A DNA stretch of 64,000 nt from Candidatus Multivoradales bacterium (lineage in GTDB: Bacteria > Acidobacteriota > Thermoanaerobaculia > Multivoradales > J023), in assembly GCA_965248925.1 (NCBI GenBank), contig CBDFLE010000005.1:2208001-2272000 (forward strand), in the 5' to 3' direction. The position numbers and the translations under genes are program-made. This document shows positions 3,001 through 62,282 of the stretch, piece by piece (position 1 is the first letter of the stretch; the number at the start of each line of letters is the position of its first letter). The notes under the pieces are model-generated. The model saw only the letters and a program-made list of their open reading frames with translations, was not told the DNA's origin and did no database searches.

Positions 3001-6000
3001 GCCGCGGGCCAGGCCAACCCCGGCCAAGCACAGCTCGCCGACCACCCCCAGCGGCACTGGCCACAGCTCACCATCCACCAGATGAGTGCGCAGGTTGGCG
3101 ATCGGCCGACCGATCGGCACCCCAGCCTCAACATCCTCCGCGGTGCAAGTCCAGGCGGTCACCTCGATCGAGGCTTCAGTGGGTCCGTATAGATTGTGCA
3201 AGGGCACCGATCCCAGGCGGCGGCGATAGCTGCTCAGCAGCTCTGCCGACAACGCCTCACCGCTGGCCAGCACCCCCCGCAGGCTGGCGCAATGTCTCTC
3301 GATATCGGCGCTGGCCAGGAAAGCGCTCATCATCGACGGCACGAAGTGCACATGGGTGATCCGCCAGCGGGCCAAGGTCCGCTTCAAATACTCCGCATCA
3401 CCGTGCGCTTCAGGCCGCGCCAGATAGAGGGTGGCACCGGCGATCAGCGGCCAGAACAGCTCGTTGACCGACACATCGAAAGTCACCGGCGTCTTCTGCA
3501 ACCAGCGATCCGCTGCCACGAGGGGCATCGTCGTCTGCCCCCAGAGCAGCCGGTTGACCACTCCGCGATGAGAATTCATCACCCCCTTCGGCCGGCCGGT
3601 CGAGCCCGAGGTGTAGATCACGTAGGCCAGCTGGTCGGGGTCAGGACGCTGGAGGGCCGGCACCCGGAGCGCCGCCGACGGCGAAGCGGCGCTGTCGAGC
3701 AAGACCAGCTGGCGTTCGCTCGCCCAGCGCGAGGCCCACTTGGATTGGCTCAGCACCACGTCCACGTCGCTATCGTCAAGCATGAACTCCAACCGCTCTT
3801 GCGGATCGCCGGGATCGAGGGGCAAATAGGCAGCTCCGGCCTTCCAGATCGCCAACAGTCCAACCACCAGCTCGACCGAGCGCTCAGCGCAGATTCCCAC
3901 CCGGGTCTCCCGCCCCACACCGAGGTCACGTAGCCGCTGGGCCAGCGATTCACTGCACCGCTCGAGCTCGCCGTAGCTCAGCGCCGCCCGTTCTGAAACC
4001 AGCGCCAAGGCATCCGGATTCGCTACCGCCCGACTGCTGATCAGCTCATGAACACAGCCCTCGGCGGCCTCGAAGACGACCTCAGTATCGAGCTGCTCGA
4101 TCAACACCTGATGCCGCTCCGCCGGTCGCCAGAGAGCCAGTTCGGCGAGCGCCCGGGTGGGATCAGCAAGAGAGTTGGTGAGCAACTCACGGTAGTACGT
4201 CAGCCACCGCTGGGCAGTGACGTCGTCATAAAGGTCGGTGTTGTACTCCAGCTCACAACCCAGCTGGGTGCCATGTTCGGCCGCCGCGAAGGTCAGATCG
4301 AATTTGGCGGTGGCCGCCACCGCGCCGTCGCTCCCCTGCACCTCCAGACCGTCCGCTGGCGGCTCAGCAAGCTGCCGAGCGGCATCCACGGCACTGCGGA
4401 CCCGGGCCTCGGCCGAGAAGTTCATCAACACCTGAAATAACGGCGGGAAGGCCAGGCTGCGATTCGGTTGTAGCTCTTCAACCAACCGCTCGAAGGGCAG
4501 GTCCTGATGATCTTGAGCTTCGACCAGCAGCTCTCGCACCTGGGCGACGATGGCCGCGAAGCAGTCATTCGGCGCACACTGCACGCGGGCCACCACGACA
4601 TTGACGAACAGTCCGATCAAATCCTCCACCTGGCGGTGACGGCGACCGGCAACCGGCAGCCCGACCACCACGTCGCGCTGTCCGCTCAAGCGACTGAGCA
4701 GCATCGCCAGGACGCTGAGGGCAACCGTGAAGGTGGTCACTCGACTGCGCTGGGCGAAGCTCTTCAGCCGGTCGAAACTGGTGGCAGAGAGAGACGAAGC
4801 GATGCCCGCGCCGCGGAACGTCTGCACCGCAGGGCGCCGCCTGTCGGTCGGTAGCTCGAGCCGTTCCGGCGCCCCCGCTAGACGCTGGCGCCAGTAACTC
4901 AACAGCCGCTCCAAGCGCTCTCCACTGAGCCAGCGGCGCTGCCAGGAGGCGAAATCCGAATACTGCAAGCGAGGTTCTTCGAGCACTGGCGGATCGCCGG
5001 CGGCAAAGGACTGGTAGAGTTCCTCCAACTCGCGTTCCAACACCGACATCGACCAACCGTCAGAGAGGATGTGGTGCAAGGTGATCAGCAAACGGTGGCG
5101 CTGCTGGTCGATCCGCAGCACCTGCCAGCGACTGGTCGGGCCGCGTTCGAGGTCGAGAGCAGCGCTGGCTTGCTGAGCGGCGATACGGTCGGCCTGGCGG
5201 TCGCCGGCCGGCGACCGTAGGCGGCTGAGATCGATGCAGGTCAAGCCGACTGCCGAAGGTGGGTCGACGCAAACGCTGGGCCGCCCCTGGGAAGTGATGG
5301 GAAAGCGCGAGCGCAGCACCTGGTGGCGCCGCAGGAGTTCATACACCGCCCGGCGCAAGGCGCCCAGGGCGAGGCCTCCTTCGAGCCCGACGGAGTACGG
5401 CATGTTGTAGGCCGGGCTGTCCGGCTCCATCAAATGGAGGAACCACAGCCGCTCCTGGGCATAGGATAGCTGCGCCGGTTGGCTTTGCCCTCGAGCGGCG
5501 GCCAGAGAGCCGATCAGCGGCTCGAGCTGCAACTCCCATCCATCTTCCTCAGCCACCCCTCTGGACTCCAGAGTCGCCGCCAATCCAGCGATCGTCGGAT
5601 GTTCGAAGAGACTCGCCAGCGGCACCGCTCGACCGAGTTCCTGCTCGACTCGATTGAGCAGCCGAACCGCCACCAACGAGTGTCCGCCGAGCTCGAAGAA
5701 GTTCTCTCCGATAGCGACCGTCGGACGCTCCAACACCTCGCTCCAGATCTCCGACAAGACCTGCTCCAGAGCCGTGCGGGGGGCTTCCAAGCGAGCGTTC
5801 TCGAGCGGCTCCAGGGCGAGCAGAGCGCGACGGTTGAGCTTGCCGTTGGCGGTCAGTGGCAGCTCGTCGAGCAGTCGGTAAGCAGTCGGTAGCATGTAGA
5901 CCGGCAGAGCCACCTCAAGAGCTCCGCGCAGGCTGTCCAGGGTGCTGCGTTGATCATTCTCCGACGGCCTCTGGGCCAGCGGCTCAGCCGGCACCACAAA

Positions 6001-9000
6001 GGCCAGCAAACGCGGCGTGGAGCCCTCCTCTACCGCAGCCAGGACAACCGCCGACCGTACTGCGGCCAAACTCTCGAGAGTGCGCTCGATCTCCCCCAGC
6101 TCGACCCGGAAACCGCGAATCTTGAGCTGCTGATCGATCCGCCCGAGAATCTCGATTTCACCTGCGGCCGAATGGCGGGTCAAGTCACCGCTGCGATAGA
6201 GGCGACCACCGGGGTGGGCGGCGAACGGATCGGGGACGAAGCGCGCAGCGGTCAGAGCCGGCGAACCGCCATACCCCCGGGCCAGTAGCCCTCCCGCCAA
6301 CGCCAGCTCACCAGCGATCCCCGGAGCCACCGGCCGCAGCCAGCGATCCAGCACATAGGCCCGGCAACCGGGGAGCGGCCGCCCGATCGGCACCGCAGCG
6401 CTACCACCCCCGCGCGGTGACTGGCTGGTCAACACCCCGACGGTGGTCTCGCTGGGGCCGTAGTGATTGATCAGCAGGCACTCGGGAGCGAGCCGTTCGA
6501 GTTCGGCCCACAACTCCCAGGTCGAGGCTTCGCCGCCGAGGATAAGGCGCCGACGGGGCAGCGCATCCGCCGGCCTGTCGCCCTTCAGCAACTCGGCGAG
6601 GTGGGTCGGAACGATCTTCAAACAATCGATCGGATGGCGCTGGAAGTAGCTCTCAAAAGCCGCCGCGTCGGTCACCGTCTGATACGGCAAAACGTGCAGC
6701 ACAGCGCCGTTGACCAGGGCTGGGAAGAGCATGGTATTGCCCAGATCAGCGCCGAAAGTCGAGACCATCGCATACGAACGGCAGTGGCGCAGCTGCAGCC
6801 GCTCGATCACCGCCCAGCAGTAGCCCATCAGCTGGGCGTGGCCCACCTGCACCCCTTTCGGCAGACCACTGGAGCCGGAAGTGAAGATCACATAGGCCAG
6901 AGCGTCACCACCGAGTTCGCCGACCGGTTCGAGCACGCCGCCATCGAAATCCTCGAATTCCTGCCAGCAGGCATCGATCACCACCGCCGCCCGGCGCACC
7001 CCCGGCGGTAAGCCATCGACCAGCTCGGCGGCGGATAGAAGCAGTGGATTTGCCGCCTCGTCGAGGATCGCCGCGACCCGAGCGAGGGGCTGGCGGGGAT
7101 CGATCGGCAGGTAAGCGCCGCCGGCCTTGAGCACCGCCAGAAGAGCGACCACCATGCTGCTCGAACGCTCGAGCCACAGCGCCACCGGCACTTCCGGTCC
7201 AACCCCGCGGCGGCGCAGGAAGCGGGCCAATTGGTTGGCTCGGCGATCGAACTCGCCATAGCTCAGCTGGGTGTCGGCGGCCACCACCGCGATCGCCTGC
7301 GGCCGCTCAGCGGCATGGGCCTCCACCCACTGGTGGAGCTGGCGCGACGGCTGGACGCTGCCGGTGTCGTTCCATTCCTCGAGCAGCGTGTGGCGTTCGC
7401 CGCGACTCAGCAGGTCGACTTCCACCGGCAGCAGCGCCGGGTCGGAGATCAGCGCCCGCAGCAGACGTTCGAAGCGCGCCAACCACCCCTCAACCGTCTC
7501 AGCGCTGAACAGGTCACGGTCATATTCCAGCTCACACTGCCAGCTCGGGCCGCTGTTGACCGTCATTTTCAAGTCGAACTTGGCCCACCCGGTCGCCACC
7601 CCATAGGCATCGGCGGCATAGTTGCCAGGCTCCCCGGCCGCATTCGCGGCAGCCTCTCCGAGCGCTCCGAAGTTCGCCTCGTGGAACGAAAAGAGGGTTT
7701 GAAACAACGGCGTGTAGGAACGGTCACGCTCCGGTCGCAACTCCTCGACCAGCTTGTCGAAAGGCAAGTCTTGGTGCAAATGGGCATCGAGGGTGTGCTC
7801 GCGAACCATCCGGATGAGCGACCGGAAGGCCCGCTCACCGACTCCCCTGCTGCGGATCACCAGGGTATTGACGAAGAAACCGATCAAAGGCTCGAGCTGA
7901 CGATGGTGGCGGCCGGCGATCGGCGTCCCCACTGACAGATCAGCCTGACCGGTCAAGCGGGCCAGCAGAGCTTTGTAGGCCGCCAACATGACCATGAACG
8001 GCGTCGCGCCCTCGGTCCGCGCCAACTCTTCGATAGCCTCGACCAGCGTGGCTTCAAGCTCCAGCCGGGCGTAGCCGGCACGGTGGCCCTGGACCTTGGG
8101 GCGCGGCCAATCGAGGGGTAGTCGCAGCATCTTGGGCGCCTCGGCCAGGCGCTCTTGCCAGTAGGCGATTTCCGCCTCCAGCACCTCCCCCGCCAGCCAG
8201 CCTCGCTGCCAACCGGCGTAGTCGCCGTACTGCAACTCAAGCGCTTCGAGGGGCGAAGGGAGGCCGGCGGCGAAGGCCCGGTAGAGCGCCGACAGCTCAG
8301 CCCGCAAGATGTCGAGAGACCAACCGTCGGAGACGATGTGGTGCATTGCCACCAACAGCAAATGCTGCCGCGGAGTGAAGCGCAGCAAGCTCTGGTAGAG
8401 CATCGGACCGCGGCTCAGATCAAAGACCTTGAGCCGATGAGCGGCGGCCAGGCAGTCACCTATCGCCGTTCGATCGGCGGCTTCCAGATGGCTCAGATCG
8501 ATCAGCGGTAGGACCGCCACCGGCCCCTCGTCCAGCACTTGCTCGAGGGCATCCTGACCCATTTCTAAGCGACCCCGCAGCACCTCATGGCGACTCACCA
8601 CCGCGGCAAAAGCGCGCCCCATGGCGGCGGGATCGATGGCTCCTTCGAGGCGGACCTCGAACGGTATGGTGTAGAGAGGGCTTGCCGGAGCCAGTTGATC
8701 GAGCAACCACATCCGTTCCTGAGCGAACGAAGCGCGGCGGCGAACAGCGGGCGGCAGAGCCACCATCGGCGGTCGTTCGGCCTGCTGGCCAGCGCCCCGA
8801 GCCTGCTTCACTCCGGCCGCCAGTTGCCGGATGGTCGGCGACTCAAAGAGCACCCGCAGCGGCAGCTCGACCGCACAGGTCTCCCGCAACCGAGACATCA
8901 GCTGGGTGGCCATCAGCGAGTGACCACCGAGGGCAAAAAAGTCGTCTTCCACGCCAACCTCGGCGAGGCCCAGAACTTCCTTCCACAGGCCGACCAACAG

Positions 9001-12000
9001 CTCCTCTACCGCGGTCCGCGGCGGACTAGCTTCGCCACCGCGCAGCGCCACTTCTTCGAGCTGCCGACGCCGTAGCGCCGCGGTGTCGATCTTGCCGTTG
9101 GGGTTGAGCGGCAACTCCGGCAGCAGAACGTAACTCGCCGGCTGCATATAGGGTGGCAACTGCCGCGCCACAGCGCTGCTCAAGCTACGTTCGAGGCGGT
9201 CGTTGCGCGCTGCCTCCACATCGCCACCGGGAACTACGAACGCCACCAACTGGCGATCGGCCTGCTCACCCACCGGTAGCACAAAGGCCGCCGCCACCCC
9301 TTCCTCGGCCTCCAGCACGACGGCAATCTCGCTCGGCTCGATGCGGAAACCACGAATCTTGACTTGCTGATCGATCCGGCCCAAGAATTCCAGCTCGCCG
9401 CCGTGTTGCCGGCGCAGCCAATCGCCGCTACGGTAGAGCCGCTGCCCGGGCAGGTCGGTAAAGAGGGCCGGAACGAAGCACTCGGCGGTCAACGCGGGTC
9501 GGTTCCAATAGCCCCGCGCCAACCCCTGGCCGCCGATCCACAGCTCGCCGCCGACCCCCAGCGGCGCGACCTGCCCGCCGGCCCCGACCAAGTGCAGCGA
9601 GGTGTTGGCGATCGGCAGGCCGATCGGCACGGTCCTGGAACCCTCCTGCGGTAGCTCGGACACCACCTGCCAGGAAGCGAAAGTAGTGCATTCGGTAGGG
9701 CCGTAGACGTGCAACAAACGCAAGCTCGGCGAGGCCGCCAGCACCGTGCCCACCGACCGCGGATCGCAAGCTTCGCCGCCGAAGAGGACAGTCCGCAAGG
9801 TGGCGAGAGCCGCCGGTTGCAGCCGCGCCACCAGATTGAACACCGAGGTGGTGAGGAAGGCATGGTCGACCCGCTGCCGGCGCAGAACTCGCGCCAGACG
9901 ATCCGGCGCCAGCAGCTCCGACTGCTCGATTCCGACCACCTGCCCGCCCCCCAACAACGGCCCCCAAAGCTCGAAAGTGGCGGCGTCAAAGGAGGCGGTC
10001 GAAGCCTGGGCAACGCGCTCGCCGGAGCCCACCCGCAGGTAGTCGGTATTCAACAATAGGCGCAGAATGCCGGCCTGCGGCACCGCCACTCCCTTCGGCC
10101 GGCCGGTCGAGCCCGAGGTGTAGACGATGTAGGCTAGGCTCGCAGGTGGCGCCGCAACACCAGTCTCGATCGCCGAACCGGCCTCGATCGCCGACCAATC
10201 ACGGTCGAGGCAGAGCACCGTGACGCCAGCAGCCGGCAACCGCGTGGCCCCAGCCTGCTCGGTGACCAACACGCTCAAATCGGCGTCTTCGATCATCCAG
10301 CGCAGGCGCTCCTCGGGATAGGACGGATCGAGGGGCACGTAGGCGGCACCGGCTTGGACGATGCCGAGCATACCGACCAGCAGATCGGGCGAGCGCTCGA
10401 CACTGAGCCCAACCCGATCCTCGCGGCCGACCCCGAGTCCCGCCAGGCTGCCGGCCAGCAAGGCGGCACGGCGGCGCAGCTCGCCGTAGCTCAGCCACCG
10501 CTCGCCGTAACTCACCGCCGCCGCATCGGGCCGCGACCGAACTTGCTCCAGGAAGCAGCCGGCCAGGGTCAGTGGCGGCAAGGTGGCGGCCGCGTCGTTG
10601 AACTCCAGCAACAGCTGATGGCGCTCGGCGGCGGCGAGCAGCGGAACCGCGGAGAGTTTCAACGCCGGCACCTCGCTCCAAGCCTCGACCAGACCGCCGA
10701 ACTGCCGCAGCAGCCGCTGTATCGATACTCGGTCGAACAACTGCCGATCAAATTGCGCGCCCACCACGGCCCCGTCAGCGGTGACGGTCAAGGTCATCGA
10801 GAGGTCGAATTTAGTGGTCGCTTCAGCGCGGCTCCAGGGCTCGACTTCGATCCCCGGTACGGCGCCAGCGCGCTGCTCTTCCGGCCCCTGATCGTCGAAG
10901 CTGAAAGTGGTTTGGAACAGCGGCGTCAACGATAAATCCCGCCGCGGTTCGAGCTCCTCGACGAGGCGTTCGAAGGGCACCTCCCGGTGGGCGTAGGCTT
11001 CCAGCGCCAGCGATCGGGTGCTCTCCAGATGGCTAGCGAGGTTGGGGTCTGAGCCCAGCTCGGCGCGCAGCACCAGGGTGTTGACGAAGAAGCCGATCAA
11101 GCCCTCGGTCTCGGGCTGGTCGCGACCCGCCACCGGCGTGCCGACCACCACATCGCGCTGGCCGCAAATGCGCGCCAGCAGTCCTTGGTAAAGGCCCATG
11201 AAAGCCATGAAGTCGGTGGCGCCAACTCTCCGGGCGTGCTCGCGAAAGCGGAGGATCGAAGCCTCTGGCAGCCGCAACTCGCAGCCACCGGCCGGATAGC
11301 GGCGGCGCATCGGGCGCGGCCGATCAAGCGGGAGTTCAAGCCGCGCCACGCCGGCCAGTCGCCGCCGCCAGTAGTCCACTTGACGCTCGAGCAGCTCACC
11401 GCTCAGCCACTGCCGCTGCCAGATCGAGTAGTCGGCGTAGTGCACCGTCAGCGGCGCCAAGGGCGCCGGCCGGCCGGTGCTGGCGGCGGCGTAGAGGGCG
11501 GTCAGCTCGCGCCACAAGATATCGATCGACCAGCCGTCGGAGACGATGTGGTGCATGACCACCGCCCAGAGATGGTCGCCATCTCCGAGGCGGACCAGCA
11601 AGGCGCGGATCAGCGGCCCGTGGGCGAGGTCGAAGGGCCGCCGGACCACATCGGCAAGGCAGACCTCGGCCGCCGAGTTCGCCACCTCGCGCTCGAGGGC
11701 CGAGAGATCGACCACAGCACCGCCAGCGGCGGTCGGCGGCAGAATTTGTTGCACCGGCGACGGTCCGTCGCTACGGAACACGGTGCGCAGGCTTTCGTGC
11801 CGCTCGATCGCCGCCGCCAGCGCCGATCGCAATGCCGCGACGTCGAGCTTTCCCCGCAACCTTACCGCCAGCGGCATGTTGTAGGCGGTGCTGTCCGGAT
11901 CGAGCTGGTCGATCAACCACAGTCGCTGCTGAGCGAAAGACAGCGGCACCTGGTCGCCGCGTTCGAGCGCCAGCAAAGGTGGCCGCGCCAGGCTGTCGCC

Positions 12001-15000
12001 GACCTGTCCGGCCGCCACCGCCGCCGCCAGCTGGCGGATGGTTGGGCCGTCAAAGATGGTGCGTAGTTCGAGGTCAACCTCGAACTGGCGCCGCAGGCTG
12101 GAGATCACTCGGGTCGCCAGGATCGAGTGGCCACCGAGTTCGAAGAAGCTTTCCGTAGTGCCGACCACGTCGAGCCCGAGCAGCTCCTGCCACAGCTCGG
12201 CGATGGTCTGCTCGACCGGCGTGCGCGGCAGCTGCCGCTCGACCGCCCGCAGCATGCCAAAACGCTGCGGCGCCGGCAGAGCGGCGCGGTCCAGCTTGCC
12301 ATTCGGCAACAGCGGCAGCTCTTCGAGCTGGATCCAGGCCGCCGGCAGCATGTGCTCTGCCAGGTCGGGCGCCAGATGCTCTAGCAGCTGGTCGAGGGTC
12401 AGCTGATTGTCGCTGACCCCATAGGCCACCAGCCGCCGATCTCCAGGCTCATCCTGGCGGGCGATCACCACCGCGGCGCGGATCTTCGGATGCTCTAGGA
12501 TGCGCGCCTCGATTTTGCTGAGCTGGATCGGGAAGCCGCGAATACTGACCTGGGAGTCCAGCCTGCCGAGCAACAGCAAGGCTCCATCTAGCCGCCGACG
12601 AGCCACATCACCAGTGTGGTAGAGCCGCTCTCCCCAGGCCCCCGGTCGTGGGTCGGGCACGAAGGACTCGGCGGTCAGAGCCGGGCGCCCAGCATAGCCG
12701 CGGGCCAGGCCGACGCCGCCGATGTGGAGCTCACCGGCAACGCCGATCAGCGCCGGCTGCAGCTCTGGGGTCATGACGTCGAGGCGCAGGTTGGCGATCG
12801 GCCGGCCGATCGGTACGGCGCCGGATTCCTCTGCGGCGCCGCAACGCCAGGCGGTGACGTCGATCGCCGCCGAGGTGGGACCGTAGAGATTGTGTAGGTC
12901 GCAGTCCAGGCGGCGGCGGAAGTCCGCCACCAGGTCGGCCGGCAAGGCCTCGCCGCTGGAGATCACCCGCCGCAGCGAAACGCCGCGACGCTCTAATTCA
13001 CTGGCGGTCAGGAATCTACGCAATAGGGACGGCACAAAATGCAGCGTGGTGATGCGCTGCTGCTCAATCAGCTGCGCCAGCTGTCGCCCATCGCCCTGCC
13101 CACCCGGTAGCCCCAGCACCAACTCGGCGCCACTGAGCAACGGCCAGAAAACCTCCCATACCGAAACATCGAAACTTATCGGCGCGGTCTGCAACAGCCG
13201 GTCACCGAGCCCGACGGGGAAGGCCGATTGCATCCACAATAAGCGATTGACGATCGCCCGGTGGCTAATCATCGCCCCCTTCGGCTGGCCGGCCAGGCCC
13301 GCCGTGTAGATGACGTAGGCCAACTGATCGTCATCGATGGCAAGTCTGGGCTGGAGCTGGGAGCCGGTCTCTGGCCACGGCCGGTCGAAGCACAGAATCG
13401 CCGGGCCGTCTTCAGGCAATCGATCGAGCAGATCGCTGTGGCCCAAGACCAGCTCCACCGCACTGTCTTCGATCATGTAAGCGAGTCGATGCTGCTGATC
13501 CTCGGGGTCGAGGGGCACGTAGGCGGCGCCAGCACGGAGTACACCGTGCAGCGCGATCACCAGCTCCAGCGAGCGCTGCAAGCAGACCCCGACCCGGCTT
13601 TCCGGCCTGATCCCCTGGGCGCGCAGGCGGTCGGCCAGGCACTTGCTACGGCGATCAAGCTCGCCATAGCTCAAGGCGGTGGCGCCACAACGGATCGCGA
13701 CCCGCTCGGGCCAGCGCCGCGCGGCTCGCCACAAGAGCTCCGCCAGGCTGAGCTCAGCTCCCTCGAGTCGCTGCTGGGTATCGTTCCACTCGCTGATCAC
13801 CTGCTGGCGTTGAGGCGGCGGCAACAGCTCGCCGCTGGAGTGCGAGTCGTCTGGGGTGAAGGCCATCGCCAACAGCGTTCTGCGATAGACCTCGGCCACC
13901 CCGCGGACTTGCGCGGCGGTCAACTGATGGCTGTCGTACTCGAAGCTGAGATAAACCCGAGTGGACTCGAAGTCGCGGCTGAAATGGGCCAGCAGCGGAA
14001 AATCGGCGCCTTCTCGCTTGCGGAAGCCGAGCACCTCGACGTCGCCGCTGTCGAGCACTTCCTGGACGACGTGGAAGTAGATGTAGTTGAACGCCACCTC
14101 GTACAGGGGCCGGTCATGCAGCCGGCGCTGCAGCACGGCGAAGGGAAAGCGCCGGTGCGGCAGCAGCTCGGTCTCGCGGCGGAAAGTCCGCGCCACCAGG
14201 TCGCGCCAGGAACCAGCGCCGAGATGCAGCCGGAAGGGCAAGGTGTTGAGGAACAGGCCACGCACTTGATCACCGCCGCGCTCCTCCAAGCGGCCGTTCC
14301 AGACCACCCCGGTGACCACGTCCTGCTGACCGGTAACGCAGCCCAACGCCTTCAGGTGGGCGGCCAGTAAGACACTCTTGAGCGGCGCTCCCACCGCCAC
14401 CCCCAACGCCTTCAGGCCATGGCTGACGGCGGGGCCAAAATCGAGATCGACGTTGCGCATCCGTGGTCGGAGCCCGGCCTTGGCCAGTCCCAGACGCGGA
14501 ACCTCGGTCAACGGGCTATCCTCCAGTGCCCGGCGCCAAAACTCTTCGGCCTCGGGCGAGCGGATGGCCTGCTGCTCGAGCTGGATGAAGTCGCGGTAGC
14601 CGACGCTGGGCAGCTCGGGCTCGGCCGGCTCCTCGCCTTCGAGCAGACGGAAATAGAACTCGAAGATCTCCGCCAAGGTCGAGTGTAGGCTCCAGCCGTC
14701 GAAGATGGCGTGGTTTTCGGTCAGCATGAACTCGAAGCTGTCCGCAGCGCGCAGGCAGACGTGGAAACGCAGCTGCGGCACCTTGGTGAAATCGAAGCGA
14801 TGCCGCTTCTGCGCCGCCATCAGCGCCTGCACCCGCGCCTCCTGCTGCTCTGGGGTCAGCCGCCGCAGGTCGAGGATCGCGGTCGCCAGCTCCGCTTGCC
14901 GATGCACCAGCTGTAGGGCCTTGCTGAACCCGGTCAGGTGGAAGGAGGTCCGCATCACCGGGTGCCGCGCCACCACCCGCGCCACTGCCCGGCGGAATGG

Positions 15001-18000
15001 CCCGGCCTCGAAACGGGCCCGCAAATGCCAACTGTCCACGTTGTGGTACAGCGGATCCTCAGGGGTCAGCTCCATGTGGTACAACATGCCTGCCTGCAGC
15101 ACGCTCAGCGGATAAGCGTCTTCGACATCGGCCGGCAGCAGCCGCCGATCCGACTCCGAGACCAGGCCCAGCGGCCCCACGCGGGCCGCTGGCTCCGCCG
15201 CTCTAGACCCCGCATCGCCGTCCTTCGCCAGCGCCGCCACCAGGGCACCGATGGTCTGGTGGCGGAAGAGATCCGGCAAGCTCAGCTGCACCCCCTCCTC
15301 GGCCGCTCGCGCCAACACCCGCAGGCTAAAGATCGAGTCGCCGCCGAGAGCAAAGAAGTTGTCCTCCACCCCCACCCGATCGACCCCCAGCACCTCCGCC
15401 CACACCGCCGCCAAGATCCATTCTGTAGGATGCCGCGGCGCCACGTACTCGGCGCCACTGGCCAGCCGCTCGCCAGCCTCCGGCTCGGGCAGCGCTCCGC
15501 GATCGAGCTTGCCGTTGGCGGTCAGCGGCATTGACTCCAGCACCACGAACGCTGCCGGCATCATGTAGGCCGGCAGGCGCTCGCCGAGGTGGCCGCGCAA
15601 TGCCTCCAACTCCAGCTCCGCGCCCACCGCCGGCACTACCCAGGCCACCAGTCGCGCGGACTCGGCGCCCGCTTCCTGCCGCGCCAGCACCGCCGCCTCC
15701 GCCACCGCGGCATGCTCGGCCAACGCCGCCTCGATCTCCCCCAGCTCGATGCGAAAGCCCCGCACCTTTACCTGGTGGTCGATCCGACCGAGGTATTCCA
15801 GCTCGCCGCCCGCCAGCCAGCGAGCCAGATCCCCCGAGCGGTAAAGTCTCTCTCCCTCACCCCCGGAGTGAGGATCCGGCACGAAACGGGTCGCGGTCAG
15901 GCTCGGCCGGCCGAGGTAACCCGGCGCCACCCCAGCGCCACCGACCACCATCTCGCCACCCACCCCCTGCGCCACCGGCCCGCCGCGGCAATCCAGCAAG
16001 TACACCCGCAGATCCGCCAGCGCCCGGCCGATGCGGCTGCCGAAGCCCGAGCGCACCTCCGCCTCCAGCAGCCGATGGTAGGTCACATGCACCGTCGTCT
16101 CGGTGATGCCATACATGTTCACCAGGCCCGGCGAAGCATCGCCATACCGCTCCACCCAAGACAACAAGGTCGACGGATCGAGCGCCTCACCACCAAATAC
16201 CACCCAACGCAACGCCAGCTCGGTGGGACGCTCCGCCGCCACCTGAATGAGCTGGCGGAAGGCCGACGGAGTTTGATTGAGGACCGTCACCCCCTCCCCG
16301 CTCAGCAGCTCCAGGAAGCGCTCCGGCGAACGACTCACCCAATAGGGCACCACCACCAGCCGGCCGCCATAGAGCAACGCGCCCCAGATCTCCCACACCG
16401 AGAAATCGAAAGCGTAGGAGTGAAACAGGGTCCACACATCAGCCTCACCAAAGCCAAAATCGGCCTCGGTCGAAAGCATCAAGCGCAGCACCTGGCGGTG
16501 GCTGACCACCACCCCTTTCGGCCCGCCAGTCGAGCCTGAAGTGTAGATCACGTAAGCGGCTTGGGAGGGATCGCCAGCCACCCAGGAGGGCACTGCCTCG
16601 AAGCTTTCAGTCACCGCCCTCGGCGGCTCGCCAGCGTCGATCTCGAGCACCGTGCCCGCCACCTCAGGTAACCGGGAACGCAGTTCGGCGGTGGTCACCA
16701 GCGCCGTCACGCCACTATCCTCGGCGATGAAGCGCAAGCGCTCTGCCGGCACCTCGGGATCCACCGGCACATAGGCCGCGGCGCAGCGCAGAGTCGCCAA
16801 GATCGCCACCACCACGGACACCTCGCGCAAAAGCAGCAGACCCACGAAGTCCCCCGGTCGAACCCCCGCCGACCACAGCCGGCCCGCCAGTAACTCGGCA
16901 GCCGCCCGCAGCTCCGAGTAGCTCAAGGAGCGCTCTTCGTAGCTCAGAGCCAGGGCTTCAGGGCAGCGCGCGGCGACTGCCGCAAAGGCCTCCCACAACC
17001 CGCCCGCGAGCTCGTAGCTGGCACCGCTACCGCTCCACTCCAGCAGCAGCTCCTGGCGCTCGGCGGCGCTCAGCAATCTCAGCGATCCGAGTTCGGCGGC
17101 GGGATCCTCGGTCACCCCGCGTAGTAGTTGTTCGAAGTAAGCCGTCCAACGACTGATGGTTGAAGCTTCGAACAGGTCGAAGGCGTATTCCAAGCTGCCG
17201 ACCAGCCGACCGCTAGACCAGTGCATTTGCAAGTTGAGGTCGAATTTAGCGGTGCCGGTGGCGGTGCCGAGCGCCGAGATCCTCATCGCCGCGTCACCCT
17301 CCGCTACGGGCCCCTCGACCGACTCACTGCCGCTGTTCTGCACCGCCAGGACCACCTGGAAAATCGGCGTGTGATCGAGAACACGCTCGACCACCAAGTC
17401 GTCGACCAACTTCTCGAAGGGCATTCCCTGATGGTCATAGGTGGCGACCGTGAAGCTCCGCACCTGCCGCAGAAGCTCGGCGAAGTTGGGGTTGGCGCTG
17501 AGATCACCCCGCAGGACCACCATGTTGGCGAAGTAACCGATCAAGGGCTCGGTCTCGGCCAACATGCGACCCGCCACCGGCGCCCCCACCAGGACATCGG
17601 CTTGGCCACTCAGTCGGCTGAGCAGGGCCTGAAAGGCGGCGGTCAGGAGAATGAAAACCGTCGCATCTAGGGACTTCGCCAGCCCTTCGATCGCCACCGA
17701 CAATTCGCGGTCGAGGGCGAAGGGATGGGTCGCACCGCGGTAGGTCATCTCCTGCGGCCGTGGTCGGTCCGTCGGCAGGGGGAGGAAGCGCGGCGCGCCG
17801 GCCAGGGCCTGGCGCCAAAACTCCAGCTCCTGCTCCATCTCCTCCGCGCCCAGCTGCTGCCGTTGCCAAGCGGCGAAGTCGGCGTACTGCACCGGCAGCT
17901 CGGGCAGCGCCGGCATCTCGCCGGCCTGCTGGCCCAGGTACACGCTGCCGACTTCGCGAATCAAGATCTCGCTGGACCAACCATCGGTCAGCAAATGATG

Positions 18001-18534
18001 CAGGGTCAGCATTACCAGATGCTCGCCCGCCGCCAGGCGGACCAACGACACCCGCAGCGGCGGCCCGGCGCCGAAGTCGAACGGTCGGCGAGCATCGGCC
18101 GCCACCAGCGCCTCGCCGATCCGCCGCGCCTGTTGCAAGCTCAGCCGTGAAAGGTCGACCTGGGGAAGCTCGATCCGCTGCCGGCTTTGAATCTCCTGCA
18201 CCGGCGAGCCATCGACTTCAAAGAACCGGCTGCGCAGGATCCCGTGACGCTCGATGACCACGGTCAAAGAACGTGACAGCAACCCAACATCAAGCCGGCC
18301 GACCAGCCGAAACGGGCTGGGGATGTTGTAGACCGCCGTCCCCGGCGTCAAGCGCTCGAGGAACCAGAGTCTCAGCTGAGTGAAAGACAAGGGTGCCGGC
18401 CCGGACTCTCGCCGCACCGGGATGGTCGCAGCGGGCTGCTCTCGCAAGCGCTTCTGCTGCAACATCTTCAGCAGCAGGCGCCGCTTGGCCTTGGGTAGAC
18501 CTTCAAGGCGATCCAGGGTTCGCGAAGTGGTCAA
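1..18534 (-). CDS. Giant multimodular NRPS, 3'-truncated by the window (>6178 aa): C-A(Thr)-T-C(modAA)-A*(degenerate)-T-C-A(Ile)-T-C-A(Asp)-T-C-A(Ser-like)-T-C-A(partial)
   Basis: Not in the ORF track, most likely because no stop occurs in the window. A TTG at 18534 overlaps the upstream TGA (TTGA) and follows an AGAGGAG RBS. It translates MTTSRTLDRLEGLPKAKRRLLLKMLQQK...LSFTQLRLWFL. Manual spot translation in the same frame gives HHLLTDGWS (~17990), GGDSIF (~15340), TENHAIFDGWS (~14700), FDAATFELW (~9980), ADLGNTML (~6745), FDVSVNEL (~3470) and FLTTSVFNLL...YGGEAADP at the left edge. Confidence 0.93.
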   Translation of the reverse strand, partial: MTTSRTLDRLEGLPKAKRRLLLKMLQQKRLREQPAATIPVRRESGPAPLSFTQLRLWFLERLTPGTAVYNIPSPFRLVGRLDVGLLSRSLTVVIERHGILRSRFFEVDGSPVQEIQSRQRIELPQVDLSRLSLQQARRIGEALVAADARRPFDFGAGPPLRVSLVRLAAGEHLVMLTLHHLLTDGWSSEILIREVGSVYLGQQAGEMPALPELPVQYADFAAWQRQQLGAEEMEQELEFWRQALAGAPRFLPLPTDRPRPQEMTYRGATHPFALDRELSVAIEGLAKSLDATVFILLTAAFQALLSRLSGQADVLVGAPVAGRMLAETEPLIGYFANMVVLRGDLSANPNFAELLRQVRSFTVATYDHQGMPFEKLVDDLVVERVLDHTPIFQVVLAVQNSGSESVEGPVAEGDAAMRISALGTATGTAKFDLNLQMHWSSGRLVGSLEYAFDLFEASTISRWTAYFEQLLRGVTEDPAAELGSLRLLSAAERQELLLEWSGSGASYELAGGLWEAFAAVAARCPEALALSYEERSLSYSELRAAAELLAGRLWSAGVRPGDFVGLLLLREVSVVVAILATLRCAAAYVPVDPEVPAERLRFIAEDSGVTALVTTAELRSRLPEVAGTVLEIDAGEPPRAVTESFEAVPSWVAGDPSQAAYVIYTSGSTGGPKGVVVSHRQVLRLMLSTEADFGFGEADVWTLFHSYAFDFSVWEIWGALLYGGRLVVVPYWVSRSPERFLELLSGEGVTVLNQTPSAFRQLIQVAAERPTELALRWVVFGGEALDPSTLLSWVERYGDASPGLVNMYGITETTVHVTYHRLLEAEVRSGFGSRIGRALADLRVYLLDCRGGPVAQGVGGEMVVGGAGVAPGYLGRPSLTATRFVPDPHSGGEGERLYRSGDLARWLAGGELEYLGRIDHQVKVRGFRIELGEIEAALAEHAAVAEAAVLARQEAGAESARLVAWVVPAVGAELELEALRGHLGERLPAYMMPAAFVVLESMPLTANGKLDRGALPEPEAGERLASGAEYVAPRHPTEWILAAVWAEVLGVDRVGVEDNFFALGGDSIFSLRVLARAAEEGVQLSLPDLFRHQTIGALVAALAKDGDAGSRAAEPAARVGPLGLVSESDRRLLPADVEDAYPLSVLQAGMLYHMELTPEDPLYHNVDSWHLRARFEAGPFRRAVARVVARHPVMRTSFHLTGFSKALQLVHRQAELATAILDLRRLTPEQQEARVQALMAAQKRHRFDFTKVPQLRFHVCLRAADSFEFMLTENHAIFDGWSLHSTLAEIFEFYFRLLEGEEPAEPELPSVGYRDFIQLEQQAIRSPEAEEFWRRALEDSPLTEVPRLGLAKAGLRPRMRNVDLDFGPAVSHGLKALGVAVGAPLKSVLLAAHLKALGCVTGQQDVVTGVVWNGRLEERGGDQVRGLFLNTLPFRLHLGAGSWRDLVARTFRRETELLPHRRFPFAVLQRRLHDRPLYEVAFNYIYFHVVQEVLDSGDVEVLGFRKREGADFPLLAHFSRDFESTRVYLSFEYDSHQLTAAQVRGVAEVYRRTLLAMAFTPDDSHSSGELLPPPQRQQVISEWNDTQQRLEGAELSLAELLWRAARRWPERVAIRCGATALSYGELDRRSKCLADRLRAQGIRPESRVGVCLQRSLELVIALHGVLRAGAAYVPLDPEDQQHRLAYMIEDSAVELVLGHSDLLDRLPEDGPAILCFDRPWPETGSQLQPRLAIDDDQLAYVIYTAGLAGQPKGAMISHRAIVNRLLWMQSAFPVGLGDRLLQTAPISFDVSVWEVFWPLLSGAELVLGLPGGQGDGRQLAQLIEQQRITTLHFVPSLLRRFLTASELERRGVSLRRVISSGEALPADLVADFRRRLDCDLHNLYGPTSAAIDVTAWRCGAAEESGAVPIGRPIANLRLDVMTPELQPALIGVAGELHIGGVGLARGYAGRPALTAESFVPDPRPGAWGERLYHTGDVARRRLDGALLLLGRLDSQVSIRGFPIQLSKIEARILEHPKIRAAVVIARQDEPGDRRLVAYGVSDNQLTLDQLLEHLAPDLAEHMLPAAWIQLEELPLLPNGKLDRAALPAPQRFGMLRAVERQLPRTPVEQTIAELWQELLGLDVVGTTESFFELGGHSILATRVISSLRRQFEVDLELRTIFDGPTIRQLAAAVAAGQVGDSLARPPLLALERGDQVPLSFAQQRLWLIDQLDPDSTAYNMPLAVRLRGKLDVAALRSALAAAIERHESLRTVFRSDGPSPVQQILPPTAAGGAVVDLSALEREVANSAAEVCLADVVRRPFDLAHGPLIRALLVRLGDGDHLWAVVMHHIVSDGWSIDILWRELTALYAAASTGRPAPLAPLTVHYADYSIWQRQWLSGELLERQVDYWRRRLAGVARLELPLDRPRPMRRRYPAGGCELRLPEASILRFREHARRVGATDFMAFMGLYQGLLARICGQRDVVVGTPVAGRDQPETEGLIGFFVNTLVLRAELGSDPNLASHLESTRSLALEAYAHREVPFERLVEELEPRRDLSLTPLFQTTFSFDDQGPEEQRAGAVPGIEVEPWSRAEATTKFDLSMTLTVTADGAVVGAQFDRQLFDRVSIQRLLRQFGGLVEAWSEVPALKLSAVPLLAAAERHQLLLEFNDAAATLPPLTLAGCFLEQVRSRPDAAAVSYGERWLSYGELRRRAALLAGSLAGLGVGREDRVGLSVERSPDLLVGMLGIVQAGAAYVPLDPSYPEERLRWMIEDADLSVLVTEQAGATRLPAAGVTVLCLDRDWSAIEAGSAIETGVAAPPASLAYIVYTSGSTGRPKGVAVPQAGILRLLLNTDYLRVGSGERVAQASTASFDAATFELWGPLLGGGQVVGIEQSELLAPDRLARVLRRQRVDHAFLTTSVFNLVARLQPAALATLRTVLFGGEACDPRSVGTVLAASPSLRLLHVYGPTECTTFASWQVVSELPQEGSRTVPIGLPIANTSLHLVGAGGQVAPLGVGGELWIGGQGLARGYWNRPALTAECFVPALFTDLPGQRLYRSGDWLRRQHGGELEFLGRIDQQVKIRGFRIEPSEIAVVLEAEEGVAAAFVLPVGEQADRQLVAFVVPGGDVEAARNDRLERSLSSAVARQLPPYMQPASYVLLPELPLNPNGKIDTAALRRRQLEEVALRGGEASPPRTAVEELLVGLWKEVLGLAEVGVEDDFFALGGHSLMATQLMSRLRETCAVELPLRVLFESPTIRQLAAGVKQARGAGQQAERPPMVALPPAVRRRASFAQERMWLLDQLAPASPLYTIPFEVRLEGAIDPAAMGRAFAAVVSRHEVLRGRLEMGQDALEQVLDEGPVAVLPLIDLSHLEAADRTAIGDCLAAAHRLKVFDLSRGPMLYQSLLRFTPRQHLLLVAMHHIVSDGWSLDILRAELSALYRAFAAGLPSPLEALELQYGDYAGWQRGWLAGEVLEAEIAYWQERLAEAPKMLRLPLDWPRPKVQGHRAGYARLELEATLVEAIEELARTEGATPFMVMLAAYKALLARLTGQADLSVGTPIAGRHHRQLEPLIGFFVNTLVIRSRGVGERAFRSLIRMVREHTLDAHLHQDLPFDKLVEELRPERDRSYTPLFQTLFSFHEANFGALGEAAANAAGEPGNYAADAYGVATGWAKFDLKMTVNSGPSWQCELEYDRDLFSAETVEGWLARFERLLRALISDPALLPVEVDLLSRGERHTLLEEWNDTGSVQPSRQLHQWVEAHAAERPQAIAVVAADTQLSYGEFDRRANQLARFLRRRGVGPEVPVALWLERSSSMVVALLAVLKAGGAYLPIDPRQPLARVAAILDEAANPLLLSAAELVDGLPPGVRRAAVVIDACWQEFEDFDGGVLEPVGELGGDALAYVIFTSGSSGLPKGVQVGHAQLMGYCWAVIERLQLRHCRSYAMVSTFGADLGNTMLFPALVNGAVLHVLPYQTVTDAAAFESYFQRHPIDCLKIVPTHLAELLKGDRPADALPRRRLILGGEASTWELWAELERLAPECLLINHYGPSETTVGVLTSQSPRGGGSAAVPIGRPLPGCRAYVLDRWLRPVAPGIAGELALAGGLLARGYGGSPALTAARFVPDPFAAHPGGRLYRSGDLTRHSAAGEIEILGRIDQQLKIRGFRVELGEIERTLESLAAVRSAVVLAAVEEGSTPRLLAFVVPAEPLAQRPSENDQRSTLDSLRGALEVALPVYMLPTAYRLLDELPLTANGKLNRRALLALEPLENARLEAPRTALEQVLSEIWSEVLERPTVAIGENFFELGGHSLVAVRLLNRVEQELGRAVPLASLFEHPTIAGLAATLESRGVAEEDGWELQLEPLIGSLAAARGQSQPAQLSYAQERLWFLHLMEPDSPAYNMPYSVGLEGGLALGALRRAVYELLRRHQVLRSRFPITSQGRPSVCVDPPSAVGLTCIDLSRLRSPAGDRQADRIAAQQASAALDLERGPTSRWQVLRIDQQRHRLLITLHHILSDGWSMSVLERELEELYQSFAAGDPPVLEEPRLQYSDFASWQRRWLSGERLERLLSYWRQRLAGAPERLELPTDRRRPAVQTFRGAGIASSLSATSFDRLKSFAQRSRVTTFTVALSVLAMLLSRLSGQRDVVVGLPVAGRRHRQVEDLIGLFVNVVVARVQCAPNDCFAAIVAQVRELLVEAQDHQDLPFERLVEELQPNRSLAFPPLFQVLMNFSAEARVRSAVDAARQLAEPPADGLEVQGSDGAVAATAKFDLTFAAAEHGTQLGCELEYNTDLYDDVTAQRWLTYYRELLTNSLADPTRALAELALWRPAERHQVLIEQLDTEVVFEAAEGCVHELISSRAVANPDALALVSERAALSYGELERCSESLAQRLRDLGVGRETRVGICAERSVELVVGLLAIWKAGAAYLPLDPGDPQERLEFMLDDSDVDVVLSQSKWASRWASERQLVLLDSAASPSAALRVPALQRPDPDQLAYVIYTSGSTGRPKGVMNSHRGVVNRLLWGQTTMPLVAADRWLQKTPVTFDVSVNELFWPLIAGATLYLARPEAHGDAEYLKRTLARWRITHVHFVPSMMSAFLASADIERHCASLRGVLASGEALSAELLSSYRRRLGSVPLHNLYGPTEASIEVTAWTCTAEDVEAGVPIGRPIANLRTHLVDGELWPVPLGVVGELCLAGVGLARGYGGLAARTATSFVPNPWARVAGERLYRTGDLVSSRTDGVIDYLRRIDHQVKVRGFRIELGEIECLLKGAPGVARAVAVVRRHDTLGNRIFAYVVPSPALPSSGSAGDLRSSLLDVLEQHLPPYMVPTGIAVLSELPLLANGKLDRQALPDVGEPVAAELMSSPRDAVEMEVVEIYQKLLGRSAVGIHQSFFELGGHSLVAVRLQAQIQQRFEQDLPLASFFEHATVASLAEVLRQGSTGEPAWALPPLVLMAADQRRTLSFAQRRLWLLDRLDPGSPTYNMAYAVDLGEAVDRPALGWAWHQVLRRHEVLRSRFPEVADEPSVEIEPLPAAYAVPLVDLAGLEPRDGQLQAGRWASELARRPFDLQAGGLLRWTLLSLGGSGYRLLVSMHHIVSDGWSLGLLQQELTEFYRGAVSGRAPRWVELPIHYGDYAAWQQQWLSGDLLESEIDYWRQRLDGAAEFLELPADRPRGGLMRSRSAACTRQISAAVTTDVLAFAHQNRATPFILTLAVFQLLLGRYTGMLDFSVGTPISGRHRHELHHLIGLFVNTLVMRAQWAPGDTFEELFLRLRAEVLQAHQHQDLPFDLLVQELRPERALGRTPLFQAMFTYSAAAANAEAPADDGAATNPGGLDTVSSGLAKFEWSLQVAEVGGHFSCLLEYDREIFDRSTAARFLGHFENLLGQVVQRPTQTLAAIDLLAAAERHQLLVEHNDTRSWIERDLSISQLLAQHSARQPQAIVASYGDASLSFAELDRRASLVAGALQRRGVGLESRVGLSIERSLELLVAMVGVLKAGAAYVPLDPGYPAERLRLMMSDVGVSVLVTSEDLLERLPTAAIEVLCLDRDWPEIEAGEAVDRSAEVQPAQLAYIMFTSGSTGQPKGVAIPHLAILRLVRNTDYVDPRAGERTAQASTASFDAATLEFWMPLLNGGQLVGIDSQVLVSPQRLADSLARLRIDHMFLTTSVFNLLIRDRPAAFRGLQTLIYGGEAADPRAVRAAHQA
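12270..13800 (-). other. Degenerate (probably inactive) Ser-family adenylation domain
   Basis: A3 YTAGLAGQPKG, A5 YGPTSAAID and A8 GRLDSQVSIRGFPIQLSKIE all deviate at conserved residues. The pocket residues still read DVWHISLIDK. Confidence 0.8.
13850..15130 (-). other. Modified-amino-acid (modAA, dehydrating-type) condensation domain
   Basis: AYPLSVLQAGMLYH...RHPVMRTSFHLTGFSKALQLVH...KRHRFDF...FEFMLTENHAIFDGWSLHSTLAEIF. It follows a Thr module whose T has the GGDS motif. The pattern matches the McyA/AmbE/NocB-related modAA clade rather than LCL. Boundaries approximate. Confidence 0.75.
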
Positions 18535-61194: not shown

Positions 61195-62282
61195 GGCCGG
61201 CCGCTGACCTCCTCGCCAATCTCGATCTGGCTATCGATGTCCTGCCACGAACGCGGCTCGGCCATGCCGACGGCAATCTTCCGCGGCCCCGCGAAGGGCT
61301 GCCGGCCGTGCGCCACCAACATGTTGTCGAGCAGCAGAATGTCTCCCTTCTGCCAAGGAAAGGCGACGGTCTCGGCGTGGTATGCCTGGCGCAGCTCCTC
61401 GAGAGTCTCGGCGGCGATCGGCCCACCGTCTCCGAAGTAGCTGTTGCTCGGCAGGTCGGCCTCCGAGAACTCCTCCAACAAAGCGTCGCGGGCGATCGTT
61501 TCAAGGGTCGAGACGTTGAAGATCGTGGCGTGATTGAACCAAGTCAGCTCGTCGGTGACCGGATGCCGGGCGATCGCCGAGCGAACTGCTTCAGTGCGCA
61601 AACGCCCTTCCGCTTTCCACTCGACCGCGATCCCATGACCGGCGCAGTAGTCCTCGACCACAGTTCGGTCTTCGGTCTGGAAAACGGTCTGCCACGGCAG
61701 CCCGAAGCCATCTCCGAAATTGCGGCGATACATCCATTGGCGTTCTGAGAAACGTTTTTTAGTGGCCTCGGACAGCCGCTGATAAACCCGTCGGCAGTCG
61801 GCGATCGGCGTCTCACCACCGGTTGCCGGTGGGATCACACAGAAAAAGAAAATTCTCAGCGGAAAGCTACTCTGATAGGAGTTTTCGTTGTGCAAGAAGA
61901 TCGTCTGATCGGCCGGAAAGTCGGTCGAAGAGTAGATCTTGCCAGTGATCTGGGAACGCGGCGAGGAGCGCTCCTTGTACTCCAAAGCGCTACCGGACAC
62001 CGCTTCGATAAAATTTTCGAACTGCTCCTCGGTGTCGACATCAAAACCACGGAAAAGGATACCTCCGTGATGACAGAGCTTCTCCTGCAGCAGCGGGCGT
62101 TGGCGGCGCGCCCACTCGATCAACGCCACGCTGCCCGGCTCCGCCGGCTCGATCAGCAATGGCAGGAGTCCTTCTGCGAACAATGGCCGCATGGTCACCA
62201 GCTCGCCCGAGGTCACGCTCATGACCCGGCGGCGGGAGCCGCTGATTCCCGCCTGTAGGTGTTTGGGCAATGGTTTCTTCAT
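61191..62282 (-). CDS. TauD/TfdA-family Fe(II)/2-oxoglutarate dioxygenase, SyrP-like aminoacyl-PCP beta-hydroxylase
   Basis: 363 aa with GGILFRGF, SSPRS, FLHNENSY (H-x-E), GGETPIAD, WFNHA and LLLDNMLVAHGR (distal His). This motif set is typical of SyrP/AspH-like NRPS-associated hydroxylases. GAGGA RBS upstream. Confidence 0.93.
   Translation of the reverse strand: MKKPLPKHLQAGISGSRRRVMSVTSGELVTMRPLFAEGLLPLLIEPAEPGSVALIEWARRQRPLLQEKLCHHGGILFRGFDVDTEEQFENFIEAVSGSALEYKERSSPRSQITGKIYSSTDFPADQTIFLHNENSYQSSFPLRIFFFCVIPPATGGETPIADCRRVYQRLSEATKKRFSERQWMYRRNFGDGFGLPWQTVFQTEDRTVVEDYCAGHGIAVEWKAEGRLRTEAVRSAIARHPVTDELTWFNHATIFNVSTLETIARDALLEEFSEADLPSNSYFGDGGPIAAETLEELRQAYHAETVAFPWQKGDILLLDNMLVAHGRQPFAGPRKIAVGMAEPRSWQDIDSQIEIGEEVSGRP

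Follow-up and report, generated by a model that had tools for sequence, protein, structure and literature searches.

Condensation (C) domains that dehydrate a residue on their donor carrier have been described in several nonribosomal peptide synthetase (NRPS) systems. In the available part of PMC10880069, AlbB and AmbE are reported to dehydrate the residue while it is still on the donor carrier, ahead of condensation or transfer, and the dehydrating domains are grouped with the dual E/C and DCL domains, which also begin by removing an alpha-proton. A second paper (PMC11342130, the corallorazine paper, also available in part) defines a D-clade made up of the CmodAA, dual E/C and DCL domains, and its Table S2 lists many dehydration-only CmodAA domains of peptides that contain dehydrobutyrine (Dhb) or dehydroalanine (Dha), among them bogorol, hassallidin, jagaricin, nodularin, puwainaphycin, romidepsin and microcystin. 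Here we describe a C domain in a 64,000-nucleotide stretch, hereafter the window, of Candidatus Multivoradales bacterium (contig CBDFLE010000005.1, positions 2,208,001 to 2,272,000). The domain lies at window positions 13741-15180 on the minus strand, after a module with a Thr-type code, and by sequence, fold, motifs and tree it is a condensation domain of the dehydrating CmodAA class. The best reading of its function, and in our judgment a quite probable one, is that it dehydrates Thr to Dhb and then transfers the chain.

Two members of the class with solved structures are the closest described systems. The PDB entry 8jbr is a construct of module 2 of McyA that comprises a C domain, an adenylation (A) domain and a peptidyl carrier protein; according to the accessible part of the structure preprint, its C domain follows the module that forms N-methyldehydroalanine (Mdha), and that part does not address dehydration. 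The same domain appears as McyA-C1 among the CmodAA domains in the available Table S2 of PMC11342130. The other structure, 7r9x, is AmbE-CmodAA from AMB biosynthesis in Pseudomonas aeruginosa. As a hallmark of the class, the accessible text of PMC11342130 gives a [K/R]SVLLAAH section just before motif C5 that is absent from other D-clade subtypes. It also reports an Arg at the start of C6 in 96% of CmodAA domains and a second Arg in 78%, and an active site in which DG is strict and both His are not required, the first His being missing in 7 of 50 domains.

Domain layout and class assignment

All of the long reading frames of the window are on the minus strand. The frame that holds the stretch of interest, a C-A-T-C arrangement in which T denotes a carrier, occupies window positions 1..18534 and belongs to a protein, orfE, that is 11,037 amino acids long in the genome; residue numbers such as H1275 refer to the translation of the frame at 1..18534. 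The Pfam Condensation, AMP-binding and PP-binding models match the C-A-T-C stretch with E-values from 1e-32 to 1e-167, which rules out chance for these domain calls. The first C domain of the protein (17119..18447, minus strand; Pfam Condensation at residues 47-497) is LCL-like, with LCL as its best seed and a position in the LCL part of our tree, and would join the upstream chain to Thr on its carrier. It is followed by an A domain (15475..17022, minus strand; AMP-binding at residues 518-874 plus a C-terminal subdomain) that was identified by Pfam, hand reading and alignment and has canonical core motifs, including FDFSVWE at 16390-16410. The ten specificity positions of this A domain were read twice, manually with the usual landmarks as a guide and then from an alignment, and both readings gave DFWNVGMVHK, the code stated in the initial annotation of this DNA. 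This code is one position apart from DFWNIGMVHK of the Thr-E module of orfD, and we take both to specify Thr, as in published code tables. The donor carrier (approximately 15220..15420, minus strand; Pfam and motif) has GGDSI at 15331-15345 (residue 1064). Pfam finds no epimerization (E) domain in the gap of roughly 100 residues between the end of the A domain and the start of the next C domain, in agreement with the GGDS-type carrier without an E domain reported earlier. By pattern, the cluster contains 25 carrier motifs, five of them GGDSI (three before E domains and two before CmodAA domains) and the other 20 GGHS[LI].

The second C domain (13741..15180, minus strand) bears RTSFHLTGFSKALQLVH and TENHAIFDGWS. 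Its motifs are YPLSVLQAGMLYH at 15076-15114 (residue 1141) and MRTSFHLTGFSKALQLVH from 14955, with RTSF at residue 1195 and the active-site NHAIFDG at residue 1274; NHAIFDGWS spans 14689-14715, KSVLLAAH 14356-14379, LFLNTLPFR (C5) 14230-14256 and HRRFP 14143-14157. Both the RTSF...LQLVH signature and the TENHAIFDGWS sequence attributed to this domain in the initial annotation are therefore where they were expected. The span it gave, 13850..17050, is roughly right, but the C domain runs about 110 bases further, to 13741, and all of it is on the minus strand. On the acceptor side follow an A domain (12265..13740, minus strand; alignment and motif reading) with the Ser-like code DVWHISLIDK and degenerate core motifs, and a carrier, T2, with the motif LGGHSILAT at 12112..12138 on the minus strand.

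When the second C domain was searched with phmmer against all PDB sequences, the best matches were the McyA module-2 C domain (8jbr, residues 2-461; 362 bits, E 4e-107) and AmbE-CmodAA (7r9x; 202 bits, E 1e-58). The runners-up were the DCL-type domain of McyB (147 bits), PvdL (118 bits) and SrfA-C (97 bits). Control domains from the window behaved differently: an LCL-type domain of the same protein (10684-12123) scored 306 bits against Txo1 versus 59.7 against 8jbr, and a DCL-type domain that follows an E domain in orfD (26844-28253) scored 341 bits against PvdL and 334 against McyB versus 129.7 against 8jbr. Judged by these PDB matches and controls, the affinity of the domain is to named CmodAA domains and not to LCL, DCL, E, cyclization or starter domains. 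An AlphaFold2 model, computed from an alignment in which the domain and its relatives make up 39 rows, has a mean pLDDT of 89.7 and a pTM of 0.88. Foldseek comparison of this model with the PDB returned 8jbr at the top (E 2.7e-48, TMq 0.85) and both 7r9x chains next (E 1.1e-39, TMt 0.93), followed by C domains of SrfA-C, TycB and PvdL.

The motifs agree with the features described for the class in the available text of PMC11342130. The KSVLLAAH section is present in exact form, 33 residues ahead of LFLNTLPFR, and in the phmmer alignment its Lys faces R1605 of AmbE, a residue whose mutation impairs AmbE according to the accessible parts of PMC11342130 and PMC10880069. HRRFP aligns with RRYP of McyA and RRHP of AmbE and supplies the Arg at the start of C6, and the NHAIFDG active site retains the second His, the Asp and the Gly. 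The upstream code DFWNVGMVHK, which we take to be that of Thr, places a beta-hydroxy amino acid on the donor side, as is characteristic of CmodAA domains.

A tree was calculated from 91 domains, comprising 75 C-type domains from frames of at least 400 residues in this genome and 16 relatives from other genomes, with each C-type domain labelled by the best of four window seeds (modAA, LCL, DCL and E). It was a quick IQ-TREE run with the LG+G4 model, 500 columns and SH-aLRT support only. The window domain falls in a clade of 19 that consists of three domains of this genome and all 16 relatives (SH-aLRT 99), with a fourth, divergent domain from another cluster at its base (SH-aLRT 98). This CmodAA group is sister to nine DCL domains (SH-aLRT 99), and 47 LCL and nine E domains lie on the other side, a topology that agrees with the D-clade as outlined in the accessible part of PMC11342130. 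A C-domain phylogeny had been suggested earlier as a check on the assignment, and in our tree the domain indeed sits in a clade of its own beside DCL (SH-aLRT 99), within neither LCL nor DCL. The tree separates the domain from DCL, LCL and E, and the identity of the domain with CmodAA comes from the PDB comparisons. NCBIfam holds no CmodAA-specific model, and only generic NRPS models matched, far below their cut-offs. Taken together, the McyA and AmbE matches, the KSVLLAAH and RR motifs and the tree bear out the modAA-clade membership first proposed for this domain. NocB, which had been named alongside as a modAA example, does not belong there, as the available text of PMC10880069 describes it as a special DCL member.

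Relatives, donor specificity and the proposed reaction

The genome contains three close CmodAA copies, all with ENHAI.DGWS. Besides the window copy, these are a 55% identical one in the 2,742-aa protein encoded immediately upstream of the window (G000 C5:2273524-2274924) and a 51% identical one in a second large NRPS cluster on another contig (G000 C6:5152765-5154180), both of which follow an A domain with a Thr code and a GGDSI carrier. The divergent modAA-like C domain at the base of the CmodAA clade (G000 C6:5120401-5138058, plus strand, residues 3256-3732) has a long branch, scores 140 bits to the window domain and also follows an A domain with a Thr code.

Relatives elsewhere were collected by scanning one genome per species with two peptide patterns derived from the three copies of this genome. 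The scan found 80 loci with 39-58% identity, which hold 82 related domains and come mostly from metagenome-assembled genomes of Acidobacteriota (Thermoanaerobaculia, Holophagales and Pyrinomonadaceae) and from Myxococcaceae, with a few from Chloroflexota, Bacillota and Pseudomonadota. Loci of Microcystis and Pseudomonas aeruginosa are missing from the 80, the pattern scan having recovered only the near subclade. The upstream A code is readable for 67 of the 82 domains and is Thr-type (DFW[NSC].GMVHK) in 52, Ser (DVWH.SL.DK) in nine and something else in six, so that a Thr-type or Ser donor code accounts for 61 of 67. On the downstream side, Thr-type or Ser codes make up only 20 of the 74 that could be read. 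The donor carrier is GGDS(I/M/L) in 75 of the 76 rows that have the linker on the locus.

The second His, the Asp and the Gly of the active site occur without exception in the 82 related domains, and the first-His position is Asn in 39, Cys in 32, Phe in five, Pro in four and His in two. Asn or Cys at this position is the rule in the subclade (71 of 82) and is not special. We had considered the Asn as a mark of special function and rejected it, Asn being the commonest state; the replacement of the first His by Asn, highlighted as a distinguishing feature in the initial annotation, thus loses that standing.

What is directly established is the membership of the domain in its class, the Thr-type donor code, and the association of the subclade with Thr and Ser donor modules. 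That the domain dehydrates, that it does so before condensation and that its second His is the base would follow by analogy with published work on AlbB, AmbE and LgnD. In the reaction that we propose, the upstream module would load L-Thr onto its GGDSI-type carrier, and its own C domain would attach the growing acyl-peptide. With the peptidyl-Thr thioester on the donor carrier, the CmodAA domain would take the alpha-proton and eliminate the beta-hydroxyl, giving peptidyl-dehydrobutyrine. By analogy, the second His, H1275, would serve as the base for the alpha-proton of peptidyl-Thr-S-T1, and departure of the beta-hydroxyl may be helped by the Lys/His pair of KSVLLAAH. The domain would then transfer the chain to the following carrier, in the normal case by forming an amide with the Ser-type acceptor. 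Conversion of Thr to Dhb at this site had been predicted before, and it is the chemistry to be expected of a CmodAA domain that follows a Thr module.

Of the characterized systems, the McyA module-2 C domain of microcystin synthetase is the best match both in sequence, over the full length, and in fold (38% identity, TMq 0.85). It occupies the same kind of position, after the carrier of a module for a beta-hydroxy amino acid and before a normal A-T, and RTSF..LQLVH, K-SVLLAAH, GLFLNTLP and RR-P are common to both domains. The two differ in that the active site of McyA is HH whereas that of the window domain is NH, and in that the McyA donor is N-methyl-Ser, which becomes Mdha, whereas the window donor is Thr. 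McyA is also cyanobacterial, while the nearest loci of the window domain are in Acidobacteriota. AmbE-CmodAA is the second-best match by sequence and fold (TMt 0.93, rmsd 2.2) and resembles the window system in that its substrate is bound on the donor carrier. However, the AmbE substrate is 3-hydroxy-4-methoxy-Glu and the domain is followed by a second carrier and a thioesterase (TE), with no condensation, whereas the window protein has a full, if degenerate-looking, A domain between the C domain and T2. For a further set of domains the likeness is one of class only: AlbB-C2/C3 (albopeptide), NdaA-C1 (nodularin) and the CmodAA domains of BogB, HasO, JagA/C and PuwF, which belong to Dhb lipopeptides, have the function proposed here, conversion of Ser or Thr to Dha or Dhb on the assembly line before condensation. 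DCL domains such as McyB-C1 (8hlk) and PvdL C3, the sister group in the tree, have the GGDSI-type donor carrier and D-clade motifs in common with the window domain but follow E domains and lack KSVLLAAH, and DCL chains in the PDB score 118 to 147 bits against the window domain compared with 202 to 362 for CmodAA chains.

The acceptor adenylation domain and competing explanations

When every A domain of the cluster was compared with the Thr A domain in an alignment, the acceptor A domain (12265-13740) alone of the 27 amino-acid A domains had altered A3, A5 and A8 motifs. Its A3 reads YTAGLAGQPKG (13276-13308, minus strand), where the other 26 have.TSGS[ST]G.PK.; its A5, NLYGPTSAAID (12859-12891, minus strand), has Ser where the other 26 have Glu; and in A8, GRLDSQVSIRGFPIQLSKIE (12508-12567, minus strand), the Lys is replaced by Ser and there are further changes, the other 26 having Q[VLI]K and mostly RIE.GEIE. 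Among the downstream A domains of related loci, the A5 Glu or A8 Lys is missing in 0 of 69 and a mild A3 change occurs in two, and the nine closest A domains that we found in 40 relatives have canonical motifs throughout. The closest match in those 40 relatives is 55% identical, and a paralogous Ser A domain in orfD is 59% identical; a search of the 40 relatives with the degenerate A domain as query thus yielded no orthologue of the cluster. In this enzyme superfamily, the phosphates of ATP are bound by the A3 loop and Mg by the A5 Glu, and the A8 Lys acts in the conformation that forms the thioester. Given these roles, the altered motifs suggest that this A domain may be inactive or weak. If it is inactive, T2 would be loaded in trans, or the CmodAA domain would pass the chain to a free T2. 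We also looked for relaxed selection on this A domain and saw no clear signal (branch length 0.60 versus 0.50 for its sister). The degeneracy of the acceptor A domain leaves the dehydration reading unaffected.

It does open an AmbE-like variant, in which the Thr is dehydrated, the next A domain is dead, and either the Dhb-peptide moves to the free thiol of T2 by transthioesterification or another Ser A domain of the cluster loads T2 in trans. That variant is a possibility that we hold only tentatively. Against it, the roles assigned to the altered A3, A5 and A8 residues are those described for the superfamily in general, TIGR01733 still recognizes the domain with 396 bits, the domain and its sister have branches of much the same length, and the A4, A6, A7 (YHTGD) and A10 (NGKLDR) motifs of the domain look usable; an A domain that is weakened yet active is also possible. 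The variant draws its strength from the isolation of this A domain as the sole deviant of 27, from the retention of the A5 Glu and A8 Lys in 69 of 69 downstream A domains of related loci, from the nine canonical nearest neighbors, from the presence in orfD of a 59% identical Ser A domain and from the precedent of AmbE, which shifts its dehydrated intermediate from T1 to T2 (PMC10880069, in its available part). A CmodAA domain paired with a dead acceptor A domain, and hence a dehydrate-and-pass-on step in the style of AmbE in the middle of a 27-module line or a trans-loaded T2, is an improbable arrangement in our estimation; if true, it would be a naturally occurring case in which a dehydrating C domain is uncoupled from elongation in cis. 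Use of the Dhb as an electrophile for a side-chain bridge after such a dead-acceptor step is less likely still.

An intramolecular bridge had also been put forward in the initial annotation, for example from an amine resembling that of diaminobutyrate (Dab). On this reading, the side-chain amine would attack the Dhb by conjugate addition after dehydration, either catalyzed by the domain or spontaneously. We consider this very unlikely. CmodAA subclasses for conjugate addition, CA and CA*, do exist according to the accessible legend of Table S2 in PMC11342130, and three A domains of the cluster have acidic-pocket codes (DVGDTGIVNK and two DVGDLGLINK). However, the available text of the same paper describes the CA* domains (BlmVI, TlmVI and ZbmVI) as lacking both His, which are replaced by Phe and Gly/Ala, with no amide formation, and two of three CA domains as having Cys at the first His. 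The window domain has Asn-His, with the second His, Asp and Gly all retained, and a full A-T module comes after it; its nearest relative of known structure, the McyA domain, is of the dehydration-only kind, the candidate amines lie eight and nine modules downstream or in another protein, and no sequence feature speaks for a bridge. Even more improbable is an ordinary DCL or dual E/C domain that condenses, or epimerizes and condenses, and leaves the Thr intact. The window domain does belong to the D-clade as sister to DCL, its GGDSI donor carrier also precedes E domains, and the comparison was made without a dual E/C reference. Yet the window domain is not preceded by an E domain, the DCL clade of the genome does not include it (SH-aLRT 99), and CmodAA chains outscore DCL chains by 55 to 215 bits, an order that is reversed for the true DCL control. 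The KSVLLAAH section, absent from other D-clade subtypes in the accessible account of PMC11342130, and the Thr or Ser modules that precede members of the subclade in 61 of 67 readable cases likewise argue against a domain that spares its donor residue.

Several points weigh against dehydration of Thr followed by chain transfer. The tree holds no named CmodAA reference, and the link to named CmodAA domains consists of two PDB chains; dual E/C references are absent both from the tree and from the list of PDB matches. Six of the 67 readable upstream codes are neither Thr nor Ser, namely two Asn-like (DLTKVGEVGK), one Gln-like (DAWQYGLIDK) and three odd ones. The 80 loci are a near subclade chosen by similarity and include many kin (more than 14 Myxococcaceae), so that the 61 of 67 are not independent events. 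Finally, the acceptor A domain looks degenerate, and the condensation half of the reaction may not run as drawn.

The assembly line and its wider setting

The cluster is an assembly line of about 102 kb on the minus strand of the contig, with a fatty acyl-AMP ligase (FAAL) and 27 amino-acid modules, including the second Thr-CmodAA pair. In the layout that follows, the residue names in brackets are assignments based on the codes. A 5,843-aa protein, FAAL-T-C-A-T-C-A(Ser)-T-E-C-A(Gln)-T-C-A(Gly, luciferase-like monooxygenase insert)-T, is followed by the 2,742-aa protein, C-A(Thr)-T-CmodAA-A(Gly)-T-C, a TauD-family gene (window 61191-62282, minus strand) and then orfA, C'-A(Gln, methyltransferase insert)-T-C; orfB, A-T-C; orfC, C'-A(Glu-like, FkbM methyltransferase insert)-T-C-A(Gln, methyltransferase)-T-C-A-T-C-A-T-E; orfD, C-A-T-C-A(Thr)-T-E-C-A(Ser)-T-C-A(Gln)-T-C-A-T; and orfE, ten modules of which the last ends in T-TE. 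Codes left without a residue assignment include DVGDLGLINK (twice), DVGDTGIVNK, DVWEMSADNK and DARHLALMTK, among others. The predicted product is an orphan lipopeptide of about 27 residues with a fatty-acyl starter and two putative Dhb residues.

The N-termini of orfA (approximately 59930-61170) and orfC (approximately 51070-52040), both on the minus strand, are C-like domains in which PALCxD/PAMAAD replaces HHxxxDG, and each opens a protein whose predecessor ends in a C domain. Three more such domains occur in the second cluster, and all five form a long-branch clade of their own (SH-aLRT 99). They precede Gln, Glu or Asp A domains, and the TauD gene is adjacent. NCBIfam has no model specific to these odd N-terminal domains, which we take to be candidate 'interface' domains that recruit a beta-hydroxylase. 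The TauD/TfdA-family dioxygenase gene stands alone between the 2,742-aa NRPS and orfA (Pfam E 1.6e-49); no specific NCBIfam model matches it, and it probably encodes a beta-hydroxylase for a carrier-bound residue.

Methyltransferase inserts occur in three A domains (window approximately 57100-58400, 48300-49200 and 44400-45100, minus strand); those in the two Gln modules are class I S-adenosylmethionine-dependent enzymes, and the one in the Glu-like module is of the FkbM type. The luciferase-like monooxygenase (L090:7412-8563, minus strand; G000 C5:2279412-2280563; Pfam E 2.6e-53) splits the Gly A domain that ends the first NRPS protein. The last two modules of orfE, which are outside the window (G000 C5:2193436-2226546, minus strand, residues 8588-10670), share the code DVGDLGLINK and do not differ in their C domains, which suggests that a module was recently duplicated in tandem.

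The window CmodAA domain is a typical representative of a class whose biochemistry, structures and motifs are already established through AlbB, AmbE, LgnD and McyA. A single search of the literature for acidobacterial nonribosomal peptides with dehydrobutyrine found none, its one match concerning a Pseudomonas strain. The nearest relatives of the cluster are in genomes of Acidobacteriota, a phylum with few characterized nonribosomal peptides. Our survey documents a CmodAA subclade in Acidobacteriota, Myxococcaceae and a few other phyla in which Asn or Cys is normally found at the first His. The degenerate A domain beside the CmodAA domain makes this site a natural place to study how the product of a dehydrating C domain is passed on, and the CmodAA assignment supports a structure prediction in which the orphan lipopeptide of about 27 residues would carry two Dhb.

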